From: Candidatus Aenigmatarchaeota archaeon
GTDB lineage: Archaea > Aenigmatarchaeota > Aenigmatarchaeia > QMZP01 > QMZT01
Direction: 5' to 3'
Assembly (NCBI GenBank): GCA_026397315.1
Contig: JAPLVC010000001.1
Location: forward strand, 64,001-128,000
DNA: 64,000 bases
Under the pieces are notes generated by a model, which was not told where the DNA came from, did no database searches, and was given only the letters and a program-made list of their open reading frames with translations. Position 1 is the first letter of the stretch. Each line of letters begins with the position of its first letter. The translations under genes and the position numbers were made by a program. Positions 1 to 27,706 of the stretch are shown here, piece after piece.

Positions 1-1014
1 CTGAAAGAGAGTAAGGTTGAAACGCAGGTTGATATGAGATTTAACCGTAATGTAGCAAAAAGGGGTGGAAAATTAGAGCAGGGCACCATGAACACATACA
101 CGCAAAAGGTCAAAAGATTTTTCCGCTACCTCCACAATACCGGAAGAGACACCCCAAAAGTCATACGAGACGCAGACCTCAAGCAGAAACAGGTGGCATT
201 CAAGCTAACCAGTGCAGACCTGCCCACCGAACAGGAAATACTGAATATGATAAATGCGACCGAAAGTCCACTCTATAAGGCGCTTTTGGCGGTCATGTAT
301 GACACTGGTATGCGAATAGGGGACATACTTGACCTTAAGTTTAAAGACCTAATGGTGACCGAAAACGAGGTAAGGCTTCGATTTTACATAAGAAAGACGA
401 AACAACACCTGCTTTACAGTCTTGGCAGTTCGGTAGGCTTTCTTATGAACTGGCACAACCTGCACCCCACCAAAGACCCAGAAAGCCCTCTTTTCTGCAC
501 AACAGCGACAAACTGCCGTGGTAAGAGGATGTCGCACACAAACGCATACAACATGGTCAAAATGCTCGCAGAAAAGGCTAATATACACAAGAAAGTGTCC
601 TGCCATACCTTCCGGCATTGTGCGACTGCGAGAGATAAGCCGCATTATAGCGATGAAGAGCTTCGCGTACTTCGTGGATGGACGAGGAATAGCACTATGC
701 CTTTGAGATATGCGCCAGTCTCAAATGATGCCGTATTTCGAAAGAAACAGATTTTAGAGGGCAAGATTAAGGATGAATTGCAACCAAAAATCATAGAAGC
801 CCGTAGCTGTCCGAGGTGCAAGAACACTGTCACGCCTGATTCCGCTTACTGTTGCGTGTGTGGTCAACTGCTATCGAAAAAGGTTATCGGTCTCAAGGAC
901 ATGCTCGAAAACCCTCTCATTTATGAGACCATGAAATCCGAAATCGAAAGGCGGGAAGATTTGAGGCAAAAATACCAGCAACAACTCAATGAGCGGGTCA
1001 TGGCTTTTTCATGA
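1..1014 (+). CDS. Tyrosine recombinase/integrase with C-terminal Zn ribbon (possibly 5'-truncated by the window edge)
   Basis: Frame is open from base 1; catalytic motifs TGMRIGD (R), HTFRH (HxxR) and GWTRNSTMPLRY (W..Y); C-terminal CPRC...CCVCG. Confidence 0.92.
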   Translation: MKESKVETQVDMRFNRNVAKRGGKLEQGTMNTYTQKVKRFFRYLHNTGRDTPKVIRDADLKQKQVAFKLTSADLPTEQEILNMINATESPLYKALLAVMYDTGMRIGDILDLKFKDLMVTENEVRLRFYIRKTKQHLLYSLGSSVGFLMNWHNLHPTKDPESPLFCTTATNCRGKRMSHTNAYNMVKMLAEKANIHKKVSCHTFRHCATARDKPHYSDEELRVLRGWTRNSTMPLRYAPVSNDAVFRKKQILEGKIKDELQPKIIEARSCPRCKNTVTPDSAYCCVCGQLLSKKVIGLKDMLENPLIYETMKSEIERREDLRQKYQQQLNERVMAFS

Positions 1015-4327: not shown

Positions 4328-5362
4328 ATGAAGAGAAAACGGCTTCCCACATTAGTAGCAATGATTTTAACAATCCTGTTTATTTTCGTATTAAACCCGA
4401 GTGTTACATGGATAGCTTATGTGAACTATCCGTTATGCGATATGCGTTTGCATGATTTAGCATCAGAAATAACCAAAAACTCTACGAATGATACACAAGT
4501 TGTTTATGATATAGCATGGTGGGTTTCTAACAACGTAAACTGGAGCGCACAATTCTACTGTCAAAGGTTTCTGTCGGATTGCGAAACTGTATACAAACAG
4601 TGCGGTTCTTGCGGCGGCAAGGCAGACCTCGTAAGAAGCCTCCTCTACACGCTAGGATTTAACGAGGCGACGAAGGGCGGAACCCAAGGTGAAGACCATG
4701 AATGGAACGAAGTCTTTGTAGATGGCAGCTGGATTGCTCTAGATGCATCGGGGGACAGGTATGTTCTCTGGAACTTCTCGAAGAGGGAGCTGGAAGAGAT
4801 AAAGGGAGGAGGCAACGGCTCGTTAAGGCGGTATTCCATAATCAAGAAGTACTACCCTAACGGCACTGTGGTCGATGTCACGAACGAGTACACCGATACG
4901 GGTCATGTCGTTTTAATGGTCTTGGACGAGTATGGAAAGCCAATCGATTCCGCCACAGCGACTGCGAAGAGCCACTCGCTCATGGAAAGCGACCCAACCT
5001 TCACCGCCCCGAAGGACTCGGAACATTGCATTACGAACTCTAGCGGCATCTGCGAATTGAACTTAGGTGGTAACAACTACACATTCGCTGTCTCAAAATA
5101 TTTATTCGTCTACATGAACGAGACGGAGAGTCTTGTAAGCGAGAACTCCAACCTTGAAATAACCATAACATCAAAAATAGACCCAGAAAAGGCGGTTTTA
5201 CTGTTTGTCATAATTGCAGTAACGTCGGTTACAATTCTGTATATCTTTATCAGGTTTTATGTCCCCATGATGCGTAATTGTGTAGTTCGAAAAATTCAAA
5301 ATATATCTCATTCAAGAATTTTAATACAAGAAAGGAAAACAATTATGCTGTCTGAGAGCTGA
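4328..5362 (+). CDS. Membrane-anchored transglutaminase-like (papain-fold) protein with an Ig/carboxypeptidase-regulatory-like domain
   Basis: Cys-His-Asp triad GSCGGKA / DHEWNEV / WIALDAS; N- and C-terminal TM helices; VLDEYGKPIDSAT...TNSSG beta-sandwich motif. Confidence 0.8.
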   Translation: MKRKRLPTLVAMILTILFIFVLNPSVTWIAYVNYPLCDMRLHDLASEITKNSTNDTQVVYDIAWWVSNNVNWSAQFYCQRFLSDCETVYKQCGSCGGKADLVRSLLYTLGFNEATKGGTQGEDHEWNEVFVDGSWIALDASGDRYVLWNFSKRELEEIKGGGNGSLRRYSIIKKYYPNGTVVDVTNEYTDTGHVVLMVLDEYGKPIDSATATAKSHSLMESDPTFTAPKDSEHCITNSSGICELNLGGNNYTFAVSKYLFVYMNETESLVSENSNLEITITSKIDPEKAVLLFVIIAVTSVTILYIFIRFYVPMMRNCVVRKIQNISHSRILIQERKTIMLSES

Positions 5363-6316: not shown

Positions 6317-8086
6317 TTAGTTGAAAATTCTCATTTCTGGTTTCTTGTGCTTTGGATTTTTCATGGTTTCTATCAACTTTTCTCTTAATGCCGGTTTGTA
6401 AGCACAATTGATTAAATAATTTTTTGTAACGAATAGAACACTAACCGCATCGGACATGATATCGGAAATAATCTTTTTGGATTTTCCATCAAGATTACCC
6501 TCATAAACTATTGTTATAGAATCTGATTTAACTTCATCAATGTAGGTCTGATATATGATAAATTCTTTGGGTATACTCTTGACATTGGTTAAGGGGTATC
6601 GCCATTCTCCTATACTCTTACATTCAACCAATGATTCTATGCCGTTCTTTATCAGCATGTCCGGATTATTTTCAAAGAAACGAGCGATGTATGATTTATG
6701 GCATCTATCTGCAAGCTGACCCTGATACTTAATCGCATTGAGTTTAAGAAGCCGAAGCAATATTGCAACTTCTTTCTCAAAATCGCTTCTGTATTGATTT
6801 AGAATTCCTGTTGAAGGTATAATCTTTTCAACCCTTTCCAAAACTGGGTCTTCTATTATCCTCGTGTTTTCAGAGAATTTGTTTACAATCCCGATTTTGA
6901 GTTTGTTATGTTCAGTTTCAAGCATAGATTTAAGCGTACTTATGGAATAAATTTCTGTCATCTTGATTACGTCACTAATACTCTTCGAATATAATTTTGA
7001 TAGTCGCTTAAGAATGCTAAATATTTCATCTTTATTTTCAGGAGGTACATCATATTCCAAAGTGAAATCTATTTCTGTATGAAGCGCTGAAAATCCTCTC
7101 TCAAACTTAATGTTATTTTCTTTAGTAAGAGCATGAAGGATATCTCTGACCTTCATTCTCACCAGACCGAACGCTATCTCTGAATCTAAAAATTTCGAGT
7201 TTATGTCGAGTTTAATATGCTTAAGAAAATCACAAAATATCAACAACGAAGCCTTCAAACTTTCGTGTTTTTTTAGGTCTATGAACCACAAAGGCGTCTT
7301 TTTTCTGTATATTTCAAGTATCTTCAAACCTCGGTCAGTTAAGGTGTACCATCTTCCTCTAACGCCCTCTATATCACTTGACGCAATAAGACCGAGGGAT
7401 TCGCACCAATCAAGGAGCGGTCTCATATTTCTACTCATATTAATTCGGTTTCTTTTGCTTATGGAAAAATCACTATAGAATTTTTCAATGGTAACCTTGT
7501 TCTTCTCTTTATATGCAGATACAGAACGCAATAATCTTTTTTCTGTCGAGCCCATGAGAACTGGGTCAGATTTTTTTGTCCCGCATTCTAAAGCAATTTG
7601 ATGTTCATGCAAACCAGCAACACTATTCAATAAACTAAGGATATACAAACACGGTCTTGAACGAATATCCAAATATTGACCACCAGATTGAATATCAAAT
7701 ACGTTGGTAATTTTCATTCGCATTAGTTTGTCGATAAATACAGATTCCTCGTTCTCATCATTTGGACATTCTTGGTCAAAGGTATACTTAGATAGCATCT
7801 TACCCGATTCTGTGCAAAAGTAGCGGAAAGGTCTGCCCTTTCTACTAATCAACCCCATATAAGAGGCTGTGAGCAAATGGTCCCTTGCCCTGCGCATTAT
7901 CCTATCTTTCATTTTTTCTTTTCTAAATTTGCTCAACTTTGATTCTGCGAGAACCTTTGCTATCTCCTTATCATTTGGGTATTTGCTTTTTTCATTCTCT
8001 TGGTAAACCGCATTAGATATTGTCCTAATCCTGAATATGTTATGGACTCTCGTAATTGGTTTCATGTATTCCTGTTTGCCAATCAT
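6317..8086 (-). CDS. Putative restriction endonuclease with FokI/AlwI-like (Type IIS-like) architecture
   Basis: Two wHTH-like regions (RARDHLLTASYMGLI..TESG; LLDWCESLGLI..YTLTDRG) and a C-terminal PD-(D/E)xK domain (FEKEV...NPDMLI...VECKS); starts 1 nt after the MTase stop. Confidence 0.75.
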   Translation of the reverse strand: MIGKQEYMKPITRVHNIFRIRTISNAVYQENEKSKYPNDKEIAKVLAESKLSKFRKEKMKDRIMRRARDHLLTASYMGLISRKGRPFRYFCTESGKMLSKYTFDQECPNDENEESVFIDKLMRMKITNVFDIQSGGQYLDIRSRPCLYILSLLNSVAGLHEHQIALECGTKKSDPVLMGSTEKRLLRSVSAYKEKNKVTIEKFYSDFSISKRNRINMSRNMRPLLDWCESLGLIASSDIEGVRGRWYTLTDRGLKILEIYRKKTPLWFIDLKKHESLKASLLIFCDFLKHIKLDINSKFLDSEIAFGLVRMKVRDILHALTKENNIKFERGFSALHTEIDFTLEYDVPPENKDEIFSILKRLSKLYSKSISDVIKMTEIYSISTLKSMLETEHNKLKIGIVNKFSENTRIIEDPVLERVEKIIPSTGILNQYRSDFEKEVAILLRLLKLNAIKYQGQLADRCHKSYIARFFENNPDMLIKNGIESLVECKSIGEWRYPLTNVKSIPKEFIIYQTYIDEVKSDSITIVYEGNLDGKSKKIISDIMSDAVSVLFVTKNYLINCAYKPALREKLIETMKNPKHKKPEMRIFN

Positions 8087-8087
8087 A

Positions 8088-9365
8088 TCACACCTTCTGA
8101 AATATTACAATGCTTTCTCTCGAAATTGTCTCTCCAGTTGGAGTCTTCCAAGGTATCATTTTCATAGGTATTTTTCGGAAGAAACTATTAACATGTCTGA
8201 ACCCTGCCGCATTACCAAGCTCAACCGTGACCTTTTCCATGTCTAAAGATCTTTTTCTTATCATTCTGTCACCGACAACAACGCAGTAGTATGCTCCATC
8301 TTTAACTATTCGATAAACTTCCTCAAAAGTTTTCAGATAGTCAAAAAAGAAAGGTAAAGCATCTATCACTCTTTCTTCATCCGTTTTGGCAAGTTCATAT
8401 AATACATTTATTGTTGTTTTTGATGGTAACTCTTTTAGTCTGCCTACGACATCTTTATTGACCATTGAACCCAAAGCGTTCTTTTCGGCTTTATTCATCG
8501 AACCATGATTCATTTTTAGCCAAGCAACAGAAAGTTTTGACCATCTTGCGTAGCCTATGGTATTTTTCTCCTCTCCATATGGAGGTGAAGTTATAGAACA
8601 ATCGAATTCATTGTCCTTGAATGGGAGTTTTCTTGCATCATTTTTTGTGATTCTGACTGTGGGTATTCTTTTTAATCCAAGTTTTTCTATTTCTCTTACG
8701 AACTCGTTCATCATTTTCAGAGAGTCAAATGTGTTTTTGCTGAAAACCGCAAAAGTATTGGGTTTGAATTTTGACAATTCATCCGGCTGTAATATTCTAA
8801 TGAATCTGCTGGAACGATGGTCTATGTTCGACACATCGAACACTGTTTTTGAGAAAACTACCTTGAGAAAATCTTTTATATCATCATTTTTTACTTTGTT
8901 TATCTCATTCAAAATAAAATCCAACCGACAGGCAACGTCTTCCCTAAACCAATGTAGAAGATTGGGCAATATATCCTTCGGTGGTTCGATAAGTTTATTG
9001 GTTTTAAACCCGTCGTTAATGCCAGAAAGAAAATCTGTCATATTAAAATTTAACTTCCTGAATTCGATGGGTGTTGATTTTACTTTTGTGAGTAAAACAG
9101 CAAGAGGATTTATGTCATTACCAACCGAGTTTCTCCTCAGAAGCAAAGATTCGACAAGTACCGTACCACTACCACAAAAAGGGTCGAGAATAGTATCGTC
9201 TTCCTTAGAATAGACTTTAATCAATCTATTTGCTATTTGTGGTATCATCCTGGCTGGATACTTATGTATTCCATGAGTAAGATAACTCGTATCAGCTCCA
9301 GCAAAATCCCAATCTTCTATCTTTTTCCCACTCAATGTAGTTTGTGCGGTTTTCCTATTCTTCAT
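8088..9365 (-). CDS. Amino-DNA methyltransferase, alpha group, probably N4-cytosine
   Basis: THGIHKYPARMIP; motif I DPFCGSGT precedes motif IV TSPPY. Confidence 0.92.
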   Translation of the reverse strand: MKNRKTAQTTLSGKKIEDWDFAGADTSYLTHGIHKYPARMIPQIANRLIKVYSKEDDTILDPFCGSGTVLVESLLLRRNSVGNDINPLAVLLTKVKSTPIEFRKLNFNMTDFLSGINDGFKTNKLIEPPKDILPNLLHWFREDVACRLDFILNEINKVKNDDIKDFLKVVFSKTVFDVSNIDHRSSRFIRILQPDELSKFKPNTFAVFSKNTFDSLKMMNEFVREIEKLGLKRIPTVRITKNDARKLPFKDNEFDCSITSPPYGEEKNTIGYARWSKLSVAWLKMNHGSMNKAEKNALGSMVNKDVVGRLKELPSKTTINVLYELAKTDEERVIDALPFFFDYLKTFEEVYRIVKDGAYYCVVVGDRMIRKRSLDMEKVTVELGNAAGFRHVNSFFRKIPMKMIPWKTPTGETISRESIVIFQKV

Positions 9366-9638: not shown

Positions 9639-10118
9639 ATGAAGAACGTTGGTGACTACGGAGAAAAGATGGTTAGGGATATCCTAAGAAGAAAGGGATT
9701 TAACGCTAAAATCAAGGGAAAACGAACTCACGGTTATGATTTAGCCGTCAAAAAAAATGATAAGAAGACAGAAGTACAGGTTAAAACTATTCAAAAAGGG
9801 AAATTATTTCAGTTGACAGTAACGAATTTTCTTAAAATCGACATCATCGACGGAAAACAGAAGGTAAAAGGAAAAAATGATATCGGCTTGGATATTCCAT
9901 GGGTATTCGTGAAAAAAATTAAAAATGGTAATGAGTTTTTCATTCTTAGCAAATCGAACGTGCAGGATATCGTCTTGAGGAGCTATAGAGCAATGCTGAT
10001 AAAAAATAAGGGTTTTAGACCTCAAAATCATTACTCCTTTCATTGTACAATCGATGCAGACAAATTGACAAAATGGAAGAATAATTGGAAGCTTATAAAA
10101 AATAGCCTCCACCCGTAA
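9639..10118 (+). CDS. Small PD-(D/E)xK nuclease
   Basis: GDYGEKMVRDILRRKGF...GYDL...EVQVKT (E..D..QxK) motif set. Confidence 0.8.
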   Translation: MKNVGDYGEKMVRDILRRKGFNAKIKGKRTHGYDLAVKKNDKKTEVQVKTIQKGKLFQLTVTNFLKIDIIDGKQKVKGKNDIGLDIPWVFVKKIKNGNEFFILSKSNVQDIVLRSYRAMLIKNKGFRPQNHYSFHCTIDADKLTKWKNNWKLIKNSLHP

Positions 10119-10180
10119 CGAGTAGTTCAAAACAGCAAGTATCTATGTATTAAAATAGAAAAATTATACATGATGATAGA

Positions 10181-11278
10181 ATGAAAACAGTAAAGTTAAT
10201 ACACACATCAGATTTACACCTTGGGAAAACATTCAGTGAGCTAGGGGATGAGTCAAAGCTCCATAGAAATGATTGTCAAAACGTGTTTTCAAACATTATT
10301 GACTTGTGCATAAAAGAAAAGGTAAATGCACTGCTTATTGCTGGTGACCTGTTTGATAGTCCAGAACCTAATAAATCGCTAGTAAAATTTGTTATCGGAG
10401 AATTCGAAAGACTAAAAAACGAGAAAATTAGCGTTTTTATCTCATCCGGTAACCATGATCCATACAAAAAGGGGAGCGTCTGGCTTGAGCATAGATTTCC
10501 ATCGAATGTAATAGTTTTCAGTTCTGTCGATATGGAAGCCAAGGAGCTTGATGGAATAACAATATACGGGTTAGCTTATACAAACGATGCAAAAGAGCCG
10601 ATGAAGAACTTTGAGGCTGAAGATTCCGATAACTTCAAGGTTGGTTTGGTTCATGGCTCTACGACGGATATCAATTGGAATGAAGAGCCTGAAGCCGGAT
10701 ATAGGAGAATAACAAAAACTGACGTGGACAACTGCAAACTAGACTATGTCGCACTCGGTCATTTTCATGACATTATAGAAATCAAAAGCAAAACGAGGTG
10801 TTTCTATTCAGGCTCACCAGAGCCATTATCATTCAAAAACAAAGGAGATTCTTGTGTTCTATTGGTTACCCATGTAGATGGTAAAACTGTCGTTAAACCC
10901 ATAAAAACTAACATCAAGACATTCGAAACTTTGGAGATAGACTGCACAAATATGGAGTCAGACTCTGACATAAGAAAAATTCTTGAGAAAAATTCTGGTG
11001 AAAACAAGATTTTAAGACTAGTAATAACGGGCAGTCCATCTCTTGACTTGAATCTGGATAAAGAATTTCTTAAAAAGGAATTTGAGTCCAAGTACTTTTG
11101 CCTAAAAGTTGTTGATAATGTTCATTTACCTGAGAATCTAACCGAAGATGAGACAATCAGAGGACACTTCATCAGATTGGTTAAATCGGAAATAGATAAA
11201 GAGAAAGACTCTGAAAAGAAAAAAAGGCTTGAAAATGCTCTCAGACTGGGCGTAGGCTATCTGGATAAAAAACTGTGA
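10181..11278 (+). CDS. Mre11/SbcD-like (YhaO-type) metallophosphoesterase nuclease
   Basis: DLHLG, AGDLFD, GNHD, HG and ALGHFH motifs, followed by YSGSPE. Confidence 0.93.
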   Translation: MKTVKLIHTSDLHLGKTFSELGDESKLHRNDCQNVFSNIIDLCIKEKVNALLIAGDLFDSPEPNKSLVKFVIGEFERLKNEKISVFISSGNHDPYKKGSVWLEHRFPSNVIVFSSVDMEAKELDGITIYGLAYTNDAKEPMKNFEAEDSDNFKVGLVHGSTTDINWNEEPEAGYRRITKTDVDNCKLDYVALGHFHDIIEIKSKTRCFYSGSPEPLSFKNKGDSCVLLVTHVDGKTVVKPIKTNIKTFETLEIDCTNMESDSDIRKILEKNSGENKILRLVITGSPSLDLNLDKEFLKKEFESKYFCLKVVDNVHLPENLTEDETIRGHFIRLVKSEIDKEKDSEKKKRLENALRLGVGYLDKKL

Positions 11279-11282
11279 ATGT

Positions 11283-13004
11283 ATGGTTCAACTACTAAGG
11301 CTCGATGTTGAAGGATTTGGGAAGTTCGATAGACACAAAACCATCAATTTTGAAAACGGCATAAATTTTATTACAGGACTAAACGAGACTGGCAAGAGCA
11401 CCATTCTTGAAGCAATTATGGCATCTATTTTCAAATACACCAGAGGTCAAATCGAACAGTTTCTATGCTGGAAAAATAATGATGTGTGCCGAACTGCCCT
11501 TACGTACAAGACAGAAAAAGGCGAAACATTCAAGATAACTTCGGACTACAAGTCTGGGAGAAGAAGACTTGACAAAATAAAGAAAGGCAATTCTGAAGAA
11601 ATAGCGACTCTGGACAAAACAATCGAGCCTTTCATAAAGAAACACTTCGGTTTTGATGACAAGAAAGTATTCGAGAATACCGCCTTCATAAGACAGTCTC
11701 AAATGGCTATCTTAGATGATAATTCTGTTAGAAATAAGATTAAGGACATGATTGAAGAGGTATTTGCCGGCAGAGCTGAGGCATCGGCAACAAAGGCGCT
11801 CGCAAAAATAAGAAAGATAGCAAAAGATGCGACAAAGGAAACAGAGGTTCTTGAAGCGGAACAACACGAGCTAAAGAAAAATCTCAGGTCGGCGGAGGAT
11901 AAAAGAGAATCTGTTTCTAGAGACAGCGGAGAGTTTGAGAAGGTAGACAAACAACTCAATGAGAAGAGCAAGGAACTTGAAAAACAACAGAAAAACAAGA
12001 AACTCTTCGATGAAAAAGAAAAACTACTGAAGGAAAAGGAACATCTGGACGAACAGATGACAAAGGTCGATGAGTTGTTAGAAACGCTTTCTGAGGGAAA
12101 AGAACCCCAGAGAGAACAACCTTCCAACAAGAAAACAACCAGTGTCATTTTAATGGTCATAGGTGGTTTGCTCTCGATTACTGTAATAGGAGCAATAATA
12201 GGCATTCCGTTGATAATCTGGGGAATTATGAAATTAAGAAAGAAAGAAGTAGCGATTAAACCGATAAAAAGTGACGACGAAAAAATATCCAAATACAGAA
12301 AGGAAAAGAAGGAAATCCTCAACAAAAAAGCGGTCATTGAAACGAGACTAGAAGAGTATAGTCTAGTAAATTTTAATATAAATGATTTCGACGAACTTGA
12401 GACTCTTAAAAAAGATGTGGACTCGCTGAAGGAGAAAAAAACAGAACTAAAGACTAGCATCAAAACCACGACCTCTCTTGTAGAGAGTCCTGAAGATGTA
12501 AGAGAAATACTAGATGCGAATAAAGAAAAGCGACTCGGTTTTATTATGAAAATCGAGGAGCACGAACTAGCAGCAAAATTCTTGGAGATGGCTGAATCAG
12601 AAGTACATCACAAATTAACTCCAGCCATTGAGAAAAATTCCAAACCCATTTTAAAGAAAATAACGAACGAGAGGTACTCCGATTTAAGGGTGGAGGAGGA
12701 TACCCTCGATATCAAAATCAAGGCTCCCGAAATTAAAGATTATGTTGACGTGTTCTTTCTTAGTCAAGGCGCAAGAGACCAGTTATATTTCGTGTTAAGA
12801 GTAGTAATGTCAGATTTGCTTGGAGGAGAAGCAAACATACCTCTCATACTTGACGACCCTTTCCATAACTTTGACGACCCGAGACTAAGGAATACAATCG
12901 ACACTCTAAAACAAATCGCTAAAAACAAACAAATAATTTTGATTTCCCATAGACCTTATCATCATGAATTCAAAACTGTTTGCGATAATGTTGTTGAGTT
13001 ATGA
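11283..13004 (+). CDS. Rad50/SbcC-like (YhaN-type) ABC ATPase with short coiled coils and a central transmembrane hairpin
   Basis: Walker A GLNETGKST, Q-loop FIRQ, signature LSQG, Walker B LILDDPF and H-loop ISH; hydrophobic VILMVIGGLLSITVIGAIIGIPLIIWGIM at the coil apex; no CxxC hook. Confidence 0.9.
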   Translation: MVQLLRLDVEGFGKFDRHKTINFENGINFITGLNETGKSTILEAIMASIFKYTRGQIEQFLCWKNNDVCRTALTYKTEKGETFKITSDYKSGRRRLDKIKKGNSEEIATLDKTIEPFIKKHFGFDDKKVFENTAFIRQSQMAILDDNSVRNKIKDMIEEVFAGRAEASATKALAKIRKIAKDATKETEVLEAEQHELKKNLRSAEDKRESVSRDSGEFEKVDKQLNEKSKELEKQQKNKKLFDEKEKLLKEKEHLDEQMTKVDELLETLSEGKEPQREQPSNKKTTSVILMVIGGLLSITVIGAIIGIPLIIWGIMKLRKKEVAIKPIKSDDEKISKYRKEKKEILNKKAVIETRLEEYSLVNFNINDFDELETLKKDVDSLKEKKTELKTSIKTTTSLVESPEDVREILDANKEKRLGFIMKIEEHELAAKFLEMAESEVHHKLTPAIEKNSKPILKKITNERYSDLRVEEDTLDIKIKAPEIKDYVDVFFLSQGARDQLYFVLRVVMSDLLGGEANIPLILDDPFHNFDDPRLRNTIDTLKQIAKNKQIILISHRPYHHEFKTVCDNVVEL

Positions 13005-14386
13005 AAAAATTTGATTTGAACATCGAGAAGGTACTTGAAGATTGGGAAGTTTTTCACGCGTTGAGGGAAGTTATAGCCAATGCGATTGACGAACAACTGC
13101 TGACAAAAACGAAGGAAATTCAAATTTTGAAGGATAAACATAATAAATGGCACATACGAGATTTTGGAAGAGGGCTAAAATACGAGCATCTAACACAGAA
13201 TGAATGTGAGGAGAAGTTAAAACATCCAGAGTTAGTTATCGGAAAGTTTGGCGTTGGCTTAAAGGACGCTCTGGCTACGTTCGAGAGGAGAAAAATCAAA
13301 GTCATAATAAAATCGAGACATGACGACATAACTCTTGGAATGTCTTCAAAGCACGGATTTGAAGATATGTTGACCTTACATGCGTTTATCTCGGAGCCCT
13401 CGGACAAAAATTTAATAGGAACGGAGTTTATTTTTGAGGGAGTAAAGGACAAAGACATAGAACTAGCAAAGGAGTTCTTTTTAAAATTCTCTGAGGAAAC
13501 CTTATTGGAAGATACGCCGCTTGGACAAGTCCTTAGAAAAGGTAAATCCAAAGCCAAAATATTCATTAATGGTTTAAGAGTTGCTGAAGAAGAAAATTTC
13601 CTATTTTCTTATAACATAACTTCCCTGACCAAAGCCATGAGAAAGGCACTAAACAGGGAAAGAACCCATGTTGGTAGAACAGCATATACGGATAGAATAA
13701 AGTCTATCCTTCTAGAGTGTAAGAAAAAAGAGGTTGCTGAATTATTGGTCGACGATTTGGACAACTTTGAAACGGGAAATTTGCACGACGAATTAGCTTG
13801 GGTTGATGTTTCTGCTCATGCCTGTAAACTGTTAAACGCTGCAGAGAAGGTAGTGTTTTTAACCTCATCTGAATTGATTCGAGCCAAGGATATGGTAGAT
13901 AGGGCTAAGAATGATGGCTTTGACATTGTAATGGTTCCCGAAAACGTAAAACAGAAGATAAGGGGAATTAAAGACCTTGAGGGGAATGTGATAAGAGACC
14001 TGGAAGAATACAGAGCAGAGTGGAATGAAAGTTTTGAATTCAAATTTGTCAAAGAAAAAGAGTTAACAAAACAGGAAAGAGAAGTGTTTTCTAAAACAGA
14101 TTTGATACTAAAGCTAATTGGCGGGAGACCAAAAAACGTAAAAGATATATTAATTTCCGAGACAATGAGACTAGAAACTATGGGTTATAGCGAAGCAGTT
14201 GGATTATGGGAAGCGGATAACCAACGAATAATTATTAAAAGGGAACAGCTTAGAAACTTAAGACCGTACGCAGGAACGCTTTTACATGAAGTAGCGCATG
14301 CAATAAGTGGCGCGTCTGATATTTCCAGAGAATTTGAAAATGAACTAACTAAAGTTATAGGCATTGTTTCATCAGAAAAACTATGA
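13001..14386 (+). CDS. GHKL (HATPase) ATPase fused to a C-terminal HEXXH zincin-like domain
   Basis: Bergerat motifs ALREVIANAID, IRDFGRG, GKFGVGLK and GT; C-terminal TLLHEVAH...FENEL; ATGA overlap with the Rad50-like gene. Confidence 0.85.
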   Translation: MKKFDLNIEKVLEDWEVFHALREVIANAIDEQLLTKTKEIQILKDKHNKWHIRDFGRGLKYEHLTQNECEEKLKHPELVIGKFGVGLKDALATFERRKIKVIIKSRHDDITLGMSSKHGFEDMLTLHAFISEPSDKNLIGTEFIFEGVKDKDIELAKEFFLKFSEETLLEDTPLGQVLRKGKSKAKIFINGLRVAEEENFLFSYNITSLTKAMRKALNRERTHVGRTAYTDRIKSILLECKKKEVAELLVDDLDNFETGNLHDELAWVDVSAHACKLLNAAEKVVFLTSSELIRAKDMVDRAKNDGFDIVMVPENVKQKIRGIKDLEGNVIRDLEEYRAEWNESFEFKFVKEKELTKQEREVFSKTDLILKLIGGRPKNVKDILISETMRLETMGYSEAVGLWEADNQRIIIKREQLRNLRPYAGTLLHEVAHAISGASDISREFENELTKVIGIVSSEKL

Positions 14387-14478
14387 CATCAAACTTTGAT
14401 TATTTATTTTCGGAATATATCTTTACCTAATAAGCCTGCTAAACGACCTTTTCATTAAGGAGAAAAACACAAAAAGAA

Positions 14479-14817
14479 CTACTTTTTGCCAATAATTATG
14501 TTCAATCTATACTGCTTATCTATTTTCGGGTCAACCTTGAAATCCCACATTATTGCGGAATCCTTGCCTGCTTTGAACGATTCTACGATGTTATCAGCAA
14601 TTTCCTTATTGACTAAATCCTTACTTTTTGCCGTGAAGTTCAGCAAAATCCCCGTTGCATTTCTTTTGATTTTTGTTAGCTCTTTCATAGCCGCTTGTTC
14701 AATATCATCACTTTCGATTATCACCTGTGAGATGGAATTTGCTGACGATAATAAAGTCATTAAGTCTGCCTTATCGAACCTCTTTCCTAAAATCTCATCT
14801 TTTATTATCCTATCCAT
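14479..14817 (-). CDS. Stand-alone FtsZ/tubulin C-terminal-domain protein (no GTPase domain)
   Basis: Collinear by eye with the host FtsZ C-terminal half in this window: RFDKADL~NLDFADV, ESD~ESD, ATGILLN~ATGALIN, IVES~IVEA, DSAIMW~DAKIIW, YRLNIIIG~IRSMLIITG. Confidence 0.75.
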   Translation of the reverse strand: MDRIIKDEILGKRFDKADLMTLLSSANSISQVIIESDDIEQAAMKELTKIKRNATGILLNFTAKSKDLVNKEIADNIVESFKAGKDSAIMWDFKVDPKIDKQYRLNIIIGKK

Positions 14818-14948
14818 ATTTACCGCCCCCTTAATTATTTAGTAAAGCGAAATATATTGCATACTTTTTGATACCTATTTTAGCTAAAGGGGTAAGCAAA
14901 ACGACCCTTTTATTAGGGAGAAAATAGGCTTTTTGCTAAATCTCAGTT

Positions 14949-15464
14949 TTATTTTATCCTATCAGTATGTTCATGTACAATTTTCCTTCGCTTCGTATTT
15001 ATCTTCTCTTTATTCTTATGGTAATAATCAAGATGATATTTTCGATACCATTCTTTGTACCTTTCCTTATATTTTTTGTCCCGAGCCTTTACATAAGGTC
15101 TTTTTGCGTATTCCTTTCTGTATTGCTTTATTTTCTCCGTGTTCTCAGGTTTCGAAACGTACTCTTTGAAGCGGACTTTTTGGCGTTCTTTGTGTTCTTT
15201 ATTGTATTTTTGATGATACTTCTGGTACCATTCATTCTTTTCTTGTTTCCGCTTCTTGTCGGCTTTCCTAAATTTAGGACTTCGGACATATTTTTTGTTA
15301 TATTTCTTCCTTTTCTCCTTGTTTTCAGTATTTGAAAGATAAGCCTTCAGATATGCTTTCTTCTTTTCTTTGTTTTTCTGATAGTATTGTTTCATATGAG
15401 TAAGTAATCTTTCTTTGTTTCGCAGATAATATTGACGATTGTATTCAGTTAAATCTTTAGGCAT
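14949..15464 (-). CDS. Highly basic K/Y/R-rich helical repeat protein
   Basis: Imperfect repeats such as KQYYQKNKEK, KEYVSKPENTEK and KEWYRKYH; no catalytic motif. Confidence 0.7.
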   Translation of the reverse strand: MPKDLTEYNRQYYLRNKERLLTHMKQYYQKNKEKKKAYLKAYLSNTENKEKRKKYNKKYVRSPKFRKADKKRKQEKNEWYQKYHQKYNKEHKERQKVRFKEYVSKPENTEKIKQYRKEYAKRPYVKARDKKYKERYKEWYRKYHLDYYHKNKEKINTKRRKIVHEHTDRIK

Positions 15465-15470
15465 ATTTTC

Positions 15471-16106
15471 TCAACCCATCTTTCTCCCAACAGGAACTCC
15501 TAACAAATGTAAAGCCCTTGCTGTCAGCGAATCTGTATAAATGACATAAATCCTTCTATCTTTTCTGATTGGAAATTTCTTTTTGAACACTTTTTGGAGT
15601 TTCCTTCCCAACCTATTCAGTTCGAAAGAGTCTGCACTCCATATTTTTGCCATGTTCAGTTTATTGTGTATATGTCCGTGGTCATGGGTATAGTTAACAA
15701 TGAAGTCCAAATCTTCGGATTTCCTCAACGGAAGCCACCTACACGATTTCAACATTTTGTAAACAGTGGGAGACATCGTCTCGTTTGCATAATAGCCAAC
15801 AGAGGATGGGCTTAATTTCATGTCTTTAGCGATTTGAATTATTCTTCCTCCCCTTTGCCTTGCTTTCATAATTTCAGGATATTTAATTACCCTTTCTCTT
15901 GTCATTAGTGAGTACGTTTCGAGTAAATCCTCAACCGAAACAGCTATGTTATCACCATTTTCCATAGTTTTGAGGCTTTTTGGGATTCTTTTAGGCTTAT
16001 TGAATCTACTTTCCCAGAAACATTGTCTTGAACAATATCGGGAACTTTTTCTATATACAATAATATGTTTTCCACAAGTTGAACATTTAATGATGCGACG
16101 TGGCAT
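15471..16106 (-). CDS. Zn-finger + HTH + degenerate LAGLIDADG-like DNA-binding protein
   Basis: CSTCGK...YCSRQC; IIQIAKDMKLSPSSVGYY HTH; C-terminal FIVNYTHDHGHI...ARALHLLGVPVGRK resembling archaeal LAGLIDADG domains. Confidence 0.6.
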   Translation of the reverse strand: MPRRIIKCSTCGKHIIVYRKSSRYCSRQCFWESRFNKPKRIPKSLKTMENGDNIAVSVEDLLETYSLMTRERVIKYPEIMKARQRGGRIIQIAKDMKLSPSSVGYYANETMSPTVYKMLKSCRWLPLRKSEDLDFIVNYTHDHGHIHNKLNMAKIWSADSFELNRLGRKLQKVFKKKFPIRKDRRIYVIYTDSLTARALHLLGVPVGRKMG

Positions 16107-16175: not shown

Positions 16176-16420
16176 GATTGCAATCACATTATTGCTATGG
16201 GATTGCGTAGATTGCAATTGGAACATTATTGCAATCGGATTGGTGCAACATTGCATATCAGCAGATTGCACCTTCGGAAAAATATTTGTAGTAGGTATCT
16301 ATCTTTATAGAGTAGCATATTGAGGGATTGCAGTACATTGCTATTGGGGATTGCAATTGCACCATTATTATTGGAGGATTGTTGTTATAGCAATAATGTA
16401 TTGCAATGGTGGCGCAATAA
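16176..16420. repeat. Two-cluster array of ATTGC / ATTGCAAT motifs
   Basis: ATTGC at 16177, 16191, 16202, 16211, 16228, 16250 and 16265, then 16327, 16337, 16350, 16356 and 16400; five are the palindrome ATTGCAAT; a motif-free spacer lies at ~16271-16325. Confidence 0.85.
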
Positions 16421-18904: not shown

Positions 18905-19036
18905 CTAATCACCTTTAGTTTATACCTATAAATAAACTATATGCAATATAAAGTTTTAAGGGTATAATTAATTAGGTGGCGCTAAAAAGCTTAACCTAGG
19001 ATACTGATTATTAAATAAAATTAATTTTGCCTTTTA

Positions 19037-26455: not shown

Positions 26456-26596
26456 CGTTTTTGCGCAATAAAATTCCGCAACTCTTGCCGCTTTTTCAAA
26501 GGCTGGAGTAAATAAAATTTAAATAGTTTATTCCCATTATTTTCTTATGAATATTGTTGAACTGATAATTATTCGAGTTTAATGGAGGGGTTTTGT

Positions 26597-27706
26597 ATGG
26601 GCGTAAGAAGTGTTGATGCTAAGGACGTAATAAAGGAAAGGGAGAGGAAACCGCATCCAGAGGTCGACGAGGAACTCAGGAAGATTCTCGAGTCCAAGAG
26701 GGCCGAGATCAAGGTCATCGGCGTCGGCGGCGCGGGAGGCAACACGATTTCCCGCATGGTGCAGGTAGGCATCATCGGCGCGGAGATGCTGGCCATGAAC
26801 ACTGACGCCCAGGACCTGCTTTACACTGATGCTGACACCAAGGTTCTCATCGGCAGGGAGCTTACCGGCGGCCTTGGATCGGGCGCTGACCCGAAGACGG
26901 GCGCGGAAGCCGCAAAAGAATCGAAGGAAGACATTAAGAAGGCGGTTGAAGGCGCAGACCTCGTATTCGTCACGTGCGGCCTTGGAGGCGGCACTGGAAC
27001 TGGAGCCGCACCCGTGATTGCGGACATCGCCAAGAAGAACGGCGCGCTTACGGTCGGCGTCGTAACGCTGCCTTTCACCATGGAAGGCAGGCAGAGAGCG
27101 AGGAACGCTCAGGAAGGCCTTGAAAACCTTCAGGCTGTTGCCGACACGATAATAATCATACCCAACGACAAGTTGCTGGAAATAGTCCCGGACGTCTCGA
27201 TAACGACCGCGTTCAAAGTCGCGGACGAGATTCTGGTAAACGCCGTGAAAGGCGTGACTGAGCTTGTCACGAAACCCGGTCTTGTAAACCTTGACTTCGC
27301 AGACGTGCGCGCTGTCATGGGCGCTGGCGGAGTAGCGATGATAGGCATGGGCGAGAGCGACACGGACAACCGAGCTATCGAATCGGTAGAGAAGTCGCTG
27401 AACAACCCGCTGCTGGATGTCGATATTGAAGGCGCGACGGGCGCCCTGATAAATGTCTGCGGCGGCGAGGACATCACGATAAAGGAATGCCAGGAGATTG
27501 TCGAGGCCGTCACGACTAAGCTTAACCCGGACGCCAAGATAATCTGGGGAGCGCAGATAGTCAAGGAGCTTGGCGACACCATCAGGTCGATGCTGATAAT
27601 CACGGGAGTGAAGACTCCGCATCTTTACGGCCCTTCGGAGAAGAAGATAACCAACGCCAAGCAGAAGGAAATAGAAAGGGTCCTGGGCATAGACTTCGTC
27701 GAGTAA
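26597..27706 (+). CDS. ftsZ: Cell division protein FtsZ
   Basis: GVGGAGGN, GLGGGTGTG tubulin signature, NLDFAD T7 loop and LGIDFV C-terminus. Confidence 0.98.
   Translation: MGVRSVDAKDVIKERERKPHPEVDEELRKILESKRAEIKVIGVGGAGGNTISRMVQVGIIGAEMLAMNTDAQDLLYTDADTKVLIGRELTGGLGSGADPKTGAEAAKESKEDIKKAVEGADLVFVTCGLGGGTGTGAAPVIADIAKKNGALTVGVVTLPFTMEGRQRARNAQEGLENLQAVADTIIIIPNDKLLEIVPDVSITTAFKVADEILVNAVKGVTELVTKPGLVNLDFADVRAVMGAGGVAMIGMGESDTDNRAIESVEKSLNNPLLDVDIEGATGALINVCGGEDITIKECQEIVEAVTTKLNPDAKIIWGAQIVKELGDTIRSMLIITGVKTPHLYGPSEKKITNAKQKEIERVLGIDFVE

Follow-up and report, generated by a model that had tools for sequence, protein, structure and literature searches.

A stand-alone homologue of the FtsZ C-terminal domain on an archaeal mobile element, a possible modulator of host division filaments

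The stretch of 64,000 nucleotides of aenigmatarchaeal DNA analysed here (the window) opens within a 19.3-kb integrative mobile element whose left end, marked by the left copy of the 11-bp direct repeat TTAAATAAAAT, is located 315 bp ahead of the window (G000:C3:63685) and whose right end is at position 19021 (Table 1). The GC content is 0.30-0.39 (about 0.35) inside the element compared to ~0.52 outside, and the sequences flanking it are 55 bp apart in the congener G349 and ~31 bp apart in G351, so that these two genomes of the same genus have empty sites. The earlier note had placed the gene studied here, P0002, on a mobile element, and the integrase, the repeats, the base composition and the empty sites bear this out. 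P0002 belongs to a minus-strand cluster. The lysine-rich protein encoded upstream of it has no match among Pfam, PADLOC or PHROG families, and the zinc-ribbon-like protein encoded further upstream weakly matches phrog_2308 at residues 6-38. The genome assembly (1.05 Mb in 7 contigs, 91% complete) encodes four FtsZ paralogues, of which P0001, located in the window, serves here as the comparison homologue and the presumed target. The closest relatives of P0001 carry names that place the genome in the Aenigmatarchaeota, a phylum of the DPANN archaea.

Table 1. Features of the mobile element and of the host ftsZ gene in the window
Feature	Position	Strand	Evidence
Tyrosine integrase, left end of the element; frame opens before the window	1-1014	plus	Pfam Phage_integrase, E 3.9e-17
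Type II methyltransferase, cargo	8088-9365		
Mrr-like protein (nuclease), cargo	9639-10118		
Module of SbcD-like phosphoesterase, SbcC/LmuB-like ATPase and GHKL-type protein, convergent on P0002	10181-14386		
Putative terminator (T-rich tract and small hairpin) directly 3' of the P0002 stop	14425-14478	minus	Sequence, RNA fold
P0002 coding sequence, stand-alone FtsZ C-domain homologue, ATG start, 112 aa	14479-14817	minus	ORF list, dN/dS, FtsZ similarity
Codons 13-18 of P0002, RFDKAD, corresponding to the FtsZ T7 motif NLDFAD	14764-14781	minus	Alignment A3 (26 sequences)
Conserved non-coding upstream region with SD-like G-run and AT-rich TATA-like box	14818-14930	minus	Conservation in L001/L002, 16S 3' end
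Second copy of the terminator-like element, 3' of the upstream gene	14885-14948	minus	Sequence, RNA fold
171-aa lysine-rich repeat protein, co-oriented, upstream of P0002	14949-15464	minus	ORF list
211-aa protein with N-terminal Cys4 zinc-ribbon-like motif, co-oriented, upstream	15471-16106	minus	ORF list
12 ATTGC motifs, several as ATTGCAAT palindromes, upstream of the minus-strand cluster	16177-16404	.	Motif count
Right copy of the 11-bp direct repeat TTAAATAAAAT	19011-19021	plus	3 genome copies, 2 at GC boundaries
Host FtsZ paralogue P0001	26597-27706	plus	Pfam Tubulin 1.4e-49, FtsZ_C 1.7e-33

Only two relatives of P0002 were identified among ~5.8 billion clustered proteins in a word-index search, namely P0003 (88% identical) and P0004 (62% identical), both encoded on metagenomic contigs of 567-579 bp. 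P0004 is annotated as a protein of 122 aa; its true start is probably the internal methionine that aligns with the start of P0002 and is located behind the same Shine-Dalgarno (SD) sequence. The family thus delineated consists of three known members, all with the same ends. When 1.84 billion representatives, covering all protein lengths, were searched exhaustively with phmmer, P0002 itself was the sole match; no relatives were found among the longer proteins searched, and no P0002-related loci were detected in metagenome, viral and genome collections; the same kind of search found no related loci for the 211-aa protein encoded upstream. PDB sequence searches returned nothing relevant, and neither PADLOC nor PHROGs yielded a match for P0002. 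The orthologue is absent from the 4 congeners, from 22 genomes of the same taxonomic family and from all 370 other genomes of the phylum. A search for other intact homologues of this kind in mobile elements had been suggested in the earlier note; no match was obtained when P0004 was compared with phages and plasmids by tblastn.

The immediate surroundings of the gene are conserved on one side only. A G-rich SD-like stretch, already pointed out in the earlier note, is located 5-14 nt before the ATG, is kept in both relatives and could pair with the 3' end of the 16S rRNA of this genome, which terminates in GGATCACCTCCT. Altogether, ~110 nt upstream of the gene are kept in both relatives, including the intergenic stretch 3' of the 171-aa gene with its terminator-like element, the AT-rich box and the SD. 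The non-coding region directly upstream of the start codon is almost unchanged in L002 and well kept in L001, despite the saturation of synonymous sites in the coding sequence (dS 1.3-1.5), and is probably the own promoter and ribosome-binding site of P0002. The two terminator-like elements have predicted RNA folds of -6.3 and -9.2 kcal/mol. Downstream of the gene, the sequence is different in all three loci. Taken together, the conserved upstream and divergent downstream sequences indicate that the gene travels with its upstream sequence and not with the convergent defence-type genes downstream.

Comparison of P0002 with protein families points to FtsZ through a series of signals that are individually weak. 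FtsZ_C (PF12327) is the best-scoring Pfam family for P0002 (E 0.011), with a score of 16.4 bits that is under the gathering cut-off of 27 bits; P0004 scores 14.6 bits and P0003 has no match. In BLASTP searches against the host FtsZ P0001, P0002 shows 24% identity over 107 aa (E 0.003), with residues 14-109 corresponding to FtsZ residues 232-335, whereas P0004 reaches 27% identity over 110 residues (E 3e-5) and matches the FtsZ paralogue L004 with an E-value of 4e-6. The scores are too weak to choose a single closest paralogue among the four. When a hidden Markov model of the FtsZ T7 loop and C-terminal domain (CTD) was run against the 7539 six-frame ORFs of the genome, the four FtsZ paralogues came first and P0002 fifth (E 0.0086), the next ORF following at an E-value of 0.87. 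The real score was reached by none of 5000 shuffled sequences for P0002 and P0004 and by one of 5000 for P0003, and reversed sequences, used as a control, scored ~2 bits. A phmmer search of the same ORFs with P0004 retrieved P0002 and then all four FtsZ paralogues at ranks 2-5 (E 0.009-0.11), with unrelated ORFs appearing only from E 1.6 upward.

The family profile also leads to FtsZ outside the genome under study. A six-frame search of 371 genomes of the phylum produced 26 non-self matches with E-values of 2e-4 to 1e-2, of which ~19 are full-length and co-linear (query residues 13-109 or 36-109) and fall in FtsZ-sized frames of 320-490 aa; seven of the eight matches that were checked are FtsZ by Pfam. 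Three partial matches of ~40 residues are read as chance similarities: G219 and G042 each gave an ABC-transporter ATPase, and the ORF matched in G192 falls in no Pfam family.

The weakness of the individual signals leaves room for the view that P0002 is an orphan protein in which a beta-alpha-beta-alpha-beta-beta pattern and a few motifs resemble FtsZ by chance or convergence. The E-values obtained with P0002 alone are only 0.003-0.01, a single-sequence phmmer search with P0002 finds FtsZ only at E 1.4-4.4, and an hhalign comparison of the three-member family with 20 FtsZ sequences, although it aligns 95 columns at P 0.0083, assigns a probability of only 4.8%; in single-sequence hhalign comparisons with FtsZ, two unrelated ORFs of the island gave similar P-values over short stretches. 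The AlphaFold2 models discussed below are closest, with weak Z-scores, to another fold class. We nevertheless consider the absence of common descent distinctly improbable, given that P0004, in the entire ORF set, matches the four FtsZ paralogues best outside its own family, that the same co-linear register recurs in the FtsZ of ~19 other genomes, that the real scores lie beyond those of shuffled sequences, that the independent ESM models match FtsZ and that the T7 and S9-S10 motifs agree. Judged by these sequence comparisons as a whole, the co-linear homology of P0002 to the T7 loop and C-subdomain of FtsZ is statistically supported, the single signals being weak but in agreement with each other, and P0002 very probably descends from the C-terminal half of an archaeal FtsZ. 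The alignment with the C-terminal half of the host FtsZ that the earlier note had made by eye is thereby substantiated.

At the level of individual elements, P0002 comprises counterparts of the last part of helix H7, of the T7 loop and H8, and of the four-stranded C-subdomain of FtsZ (S7-H9-S8-H10-S9-S10). Its N-terminus falls in the last turns of H7, that is, just before the T7 loop as noted earlier, and the ORF ends two residues after the glycine that closes S10, such that the flexible linker of FtsZ and its conserved C-terminal peptide, which serves membrane anchors, are missing. In the 26-sequence alignment, D15, A17 and D18 of the T7 loop are invariant, and E35-S36, G56, W91 and G110 are invariant or shared; E35-S36 belongs to the ESD motif after S7, G56 is the glycine before S8, W91 is the S9 tryptophan, present without exception in the aligned archaeal FtsZ, and G110 closes S10. 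Both aspartates of the T7 hydrolysis motif, NxDxx[D/E] (PMC12583498), are kept (D15 and D18), in accord with the original description of a change from NLDFAD to RFDKAD. The asparagine of the motif is replaced by arginine in P0002 and by lysine in P0004, and the conserved phenylalanine by lysine; P0004 reads GLVKLDKAD where FtsZ has GLVNLDFAD. Three T7-loop residues that are present in P0004 are missing from P0002 and P0003, and seven H9 residues are missing relative to FtsZ. The deletions in T7 and H9 imply that the docking surface is altered; the T7/H8 segment is, at the same time, the best-conserved stretch among the three family members.

Compared with the C-terminal subdomain of FtsZ as represented by PF12327 and the four host paralogues, P0002 therefore shows co-linearity over the whole stretch between the end of H7 and that of S10, with the same order of elements, and shares with the archaeal subdomain the T7 aspartate pair, the ESD after S7, the glycine before S8, the S9 tryptophan and a terminal Gly-x-Lys. 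It differs in its low identity to FtsZ (24-27%), in the basic residues that take the place of the T7 asparagine and phenylalanine, in the deletions in T7 (P0002 and P0003) and H9, and in being encoded alone on a mobile element, without the GTPase domain, the linker and the C-terminal peptide.

The N-terminal nucleotide-binding domain, with its GGGTG[T/S]G signature, is absent from P0002, as the earlier note had stated along with the lack of the tail, and no counterpart was found in the vicinity. A search of 524 frames of the island with an HMM of the FtsZ N-terminal domain (NTD) gave no match (best E 1.9), in line with the previous failure to see a GTPase-domain remnant upstream, and no other island ORF that could be a degenerate FtsZ front half aligned to FtsZ beyond 25 columns with hhalign. 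There is no NTD-only ORF in the 91% complete genome, where the only FtsZ-type nucleotide domains are those of the four FtsZ proteins.

Coverage of only half of the parent protein might suggest that P0002 is a decaying, functionless fragment of an FtsZ-like gene that was once carried by the element in full length. The substitution pattern points the other way: pairwise dN/dS values for P0002, P0003 and P0004 are 0.18, 0.17 and 0.15, with dS up to 1.5 (Nei-Gojobori), and therefore the frame is under purifying selection, which settles the question of decay raised in the earlier note in favour of an intact gene. The three members share the same ends, the gene comes with a conserved start, SD and upstream region of its own, it stops exactly at a domain boundary, and a remnant of the GTPase domain is present in no island frame. 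With this evidence against it, decay is scarcely credible, and P0002 is a real, selected gene for a functional small protein.

The order of secondary structure elements predicted for P0002, helix-helix-strand-helix-strand-helix-strand-strand, corresponds to the end of H7, H8, S7, H9, S8, H10, S9 and S10 of FtsZ. In the ESM Atlas, the models of P0002 and P0004 have pTM values of 0.63 and 0.58, respectively, and the structures nearest to them include FtsZ, with a TM-score of 0.76 over 109 and 119 residues, as well as clusters that carry only FtsZ_C. Also among the neighbours are small unannotated proteins of Bacteroidota (125-157 aa, TM 0.74-0.83), the clusters of which are the nearest Atlas neighbours by features too (0.92-0.93). 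These models resemble FtsZ-C in the same way as those of P0002, but the proteins are bacterial and have no detectable sequence similarity to P0002. AlphaFold2 gave a pLDDT of 57 with the three-sequence family alignment, and a pLDDT of 70 and pTM of 0.58 with FtsZ C-domains added (A3), the latter model not being independent of the hypothesis. The AlphaFold2 models of P0002 are nearest to IF3-C/Alba/SirA-like folds, with weak Z-scores at noise level. The secondary structure elements follow one another identically in the FtsZ-C and IF3-C/Alba-like classes, which are distinguished by strand order, and the quality of the models is too low to discriminate between the two. Predictions of a complex of P0002 (A1) with residues 30-345 of the host FtsZ (A2), GTP and Mg, carried out without controls, scored 0.00 in both runs and are evidence neither way.

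The resemblance of the AlphaFold2 models to nucleic-acid or protein binders, weak as the Z-scores are, is one of several observations that fit an exaptation, in which P0002 would descend from an FtsZ C-domain, would have lost contact with FtsZ and would perform another role for the element, such as binding nucleic acids or proteins during regulation or replication, in the manner of other small beta-alpha-beta-alpha-beta-beta proteins. The extreme divergence (24-27% identity, below the Pfam cut-off), the loss of the T7 asparagine and phenylalanine, the T7 and H9 deletions, and the link to the upstream genes for the zinc-ribbon and basic repeat proteins and to the ATTGC array are compatible with such a change of function. 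However, even at E-values up to 10, P0002 matches none of the Pfam families Alba, IF3_C, SepF and TusA. T7/H8 is, moreover, the best-conserved part of the family, and both aspartates are invariant despite saturated synonymous change, a pattern difficult to account for if the interface with FtsZ no longer mattered. We therefore regard this reading as unlikely, if deserving of serious consideration.

Our preferred reading is that P0002 acts on FtsZ, to which we assign a probability of about 0.5 given the sequence evidence. Within an FtsZ filament, each T7 loop enters the nucleotide pocket of the neighbouring subunit and completes the GTPase site, and the C-domain is called the GTPase-activating domain (PMC12583498). 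The bottom end is thought to be the one at which filaments grow (Du et al. 2018, as cited in PMC12583498). According to PMC9897490, a fragment of Caulobacter FtsZ that consists of H7 and the CTD carries, alone in solution, the regulator-binding C-terminal polymerisation interface. A T7-bearing C-domain shows only the bottom face and thus would dock on the nucleotide (top) face of another subunit. P0002 could accordingly be conceived as an interface mimic that offers the FtsZ bottom surface (T7/H8/H10) to the nucleotide face of at least one of the four host FtsZ proteins. If filaments grow at the bottom end, the top face is the one used by the incoming monomer and exposed at the shrinking end, and, given that P0002 has no top face, its complex with a monomer would not be extendable. 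Free FtsZ-GTP monomers would be prevented from adding to the growing (bottom) end, P0002 might also occupy the top (shrinking) end that filaments expose, and GTP at a bound top end would be hydrolysed if D15 and D18 are still catalytic. The net effect would be that Z-ring assembly is damped or stalled at a near-stoichiometric dose, whereby the element would delay or modulate host division.

Because only the bottom face is available, sequestration of monomers or binding to the shrinking end is to be expected rather than substoichiometric capping of the growing end, and the capping of growing filaments proposed in the earlier note does not agree with this geometry. Inhibition of FtsZ assembly by sequestration or shrinking-end binding is a tentative proposal, to which we give somewhat less than an even chance. 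The strongest argument that the FtsZ interface may still matter is the conservation of T7/H8 within the family. A strong effect is made doubtful by the basic residues in place of the T7 asparagine and phenylalanine, the T7 deletion in P0002 and P0003 and the large divergence. In addition, FtsZ mutants in which only the bottom face works are reportedly far less toxic than the reverse kind, so that a free C-domain would be a weak inhibitor.

The closest known parallel in terms of boundaries is artificial: the Caulobacter FtsZ 183-320 laboratory fragment (H7 plus CTD), employed in a study of MipZ, has nearly the same ends as P0002, but it was engineered from a normal FtsZ whereas P0002 is a natural gene, and the part of the source available describes no inhibitory role for the fragment (PMC9897490). 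With the inhibitors MciZ, SulA and MipZ (PMC9897490), P0002 would share the proposed principle that longitudinal association is blocked at the subunit interface. Those proteins are bacterial, are unrelated to FtsZ in sequence and engage the C-terminal (bottom, growing-end) interface, in contrast to P0002, a homologue-mimic predicted to engage the nucleotide face. Lambda Kil and T7 Gp0.4 are likewise small mobile-element proteins that target FtsZ assembly, an activity only proposed for P0002; both are short peptides of bacterial phages without FtsZ similarity, unlike P0002 (PMC3961180, PMC13423816). Our literature searches found no paper that describes a natural stand-alone FtsZ C-domain, nor any FtsZ regulator occurring in nature that consists of a part of FtsZ.

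The same inhibitors bring up the opposite function, namely that of a decoy or bait. In bacteria, MinC, SulA, MciZ and MipZ target T7/H10/S9 of FtsZ, and the isolated H7+CTD fragment is enough for MipZ binding (PMC9897490); a free C-domain that mimics this surface could soak up regulators or viral inhibitors and thus protect division, or report an attack within a defence island. The island is indeed rich in defence-type genes, including the methyltransferase, the Mrr-like nuclease and the SbcD/SbcC(LmuB-like)/GHKL module, and a phage FtsZ inhibitor in complex with FtsZ can be sensed by a defence protein, as reported in PMC13423816. The downstream defence neighbours, however, are different in both relatives, and P0002, with an identity to the host FtsZ of 24-27%, departs from it in most surface residues, which would make it a poor mimic. 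A role as a decoy is accordingly improbable. We know of no archaeal virus inhibitor of FtsZ, which also speaks against it.

The composition of the minus-strand cluster (ATTGC array, putative zinc-ribbon DNA binder, basic repeat protein and FtsZ C-domain) conceivably could reflect a segregation module that rides the host cytoskeleton, in which the C-domain would bind the FtsZ filaments of the host at their nucleotide-face end, tethering the DNA of the element to them. The logic would be partition-like as in TubZRC, but the element would supply only an end-binding fragment and borrow the FtsZ polymer of the host. We consider this a long shot.

Returning to the preferred reading, P0002 represents an archaeal, mobile-element-borne FtsZ C-domain without a paired front half that, judging from its relationship to FtsZ, may interfere with host division filaments. 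To our knowledge, no factor from a mobile element has been reported to act on FtsZ-based division in archaea. Binding of P0002 to the nucleotide face of FtsZ, if it occurs, would turn the protein into a genetically encoded, face-specific probe of filament polarity and of GTPase activation in trans. Such an activity, if real, would also show a route by which elements control cell division in DPANN archaea, whose cell biology is almost unknown and one of which, with a genome assembly of 1.05 Mb, encodes four FtsZ proteins.

The 1.05-Mb genome of this DPANN archaeon (Aenigmatarchaeota) encodes four full-length FtsZ paralogues (Table), three of which share 62-76% identity whereas the fourth is ~50% identical to each of these three. 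Two of the four lie on either side of the integrated element, ~10 and ~8 kb away.

Within the element, two consecutive genes are each followed by a copy of a terminator-like element that consists, in this order, of a T-rich tract, a short hairpin and GTCGTTT. The stems of the two copies differ by a compensatory change (CCTT/AAGG vs CCCT/AGGG), and the upstream copy is also kept at the loci of both metagenomic relatives of the stand-alone FtsZ C-domain homologue. The 171-aa protein encoded next to this homologue consists, over almost its entire length, of a lysine/tyrosine/glutamate-rich repeat, and searches of Pfam, PADLOC and PHROGs gave no family match for it. The non-coding stretch that separates the zinc-ribbon gene from a secreted/lipoprotein-like gene contains 12 ATTGC motifs, several of which form ATTGCAAT palindromes; it has the appearance of an iteron or operator array.

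Four other genes of the island form a candidate defence module made up of an Mrr-like nuclease, an SbcD-like phosphoesterase, an SbcC/LmuB-like ATPase (573 aa) with a DUF5362-like hydrophobic stretch at its centre, and a GHKL (HATPase_c_3) protein (461 aa) that matches phrog_6077 (E 1.5e-19); PADLOC recognised no known system among them. The 589-aa ORF adjoining the type II methyltransferase gene, for which no family was found, may encode the cognate endonuclease. In the congener genome G351, an insertion is located beside the empty attachment site, within sequence homologous to the element's left flank, and the attachment site may be an insertion hot spot.

Table. Locations of the features discussed (window positions unless a contig is named)
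Feature	Location	Strand	Remark
Transglutaminase-core protein	4328-5362		island gene
589-aa ORF	6317-8086
Type II DNA methyltransferase	8088-9365		PADLOC MTase_II, E 1.9e-92
Candidate defence module	9639-14386	plus	four co-oriented genes
Terminator-like element	14425-14478	minus	3' of gene
Terminator-like element, upstream copy	14885-14948	minus	3' of gene
171-aa repeat protein	14949-15464	minus
ATTGC array	16177-16404		230 bp, non-coding
FtsZ paralogue	C3:90561-91703		window 26561-27703
FtsZ paralogue	C3:53007-54179
FtsZ paralogue	C4:71538-72584
FtsZ paralogue	C1:100684-101814
Insertion in congener	G351:C2:946914-948131		~1.2 kb
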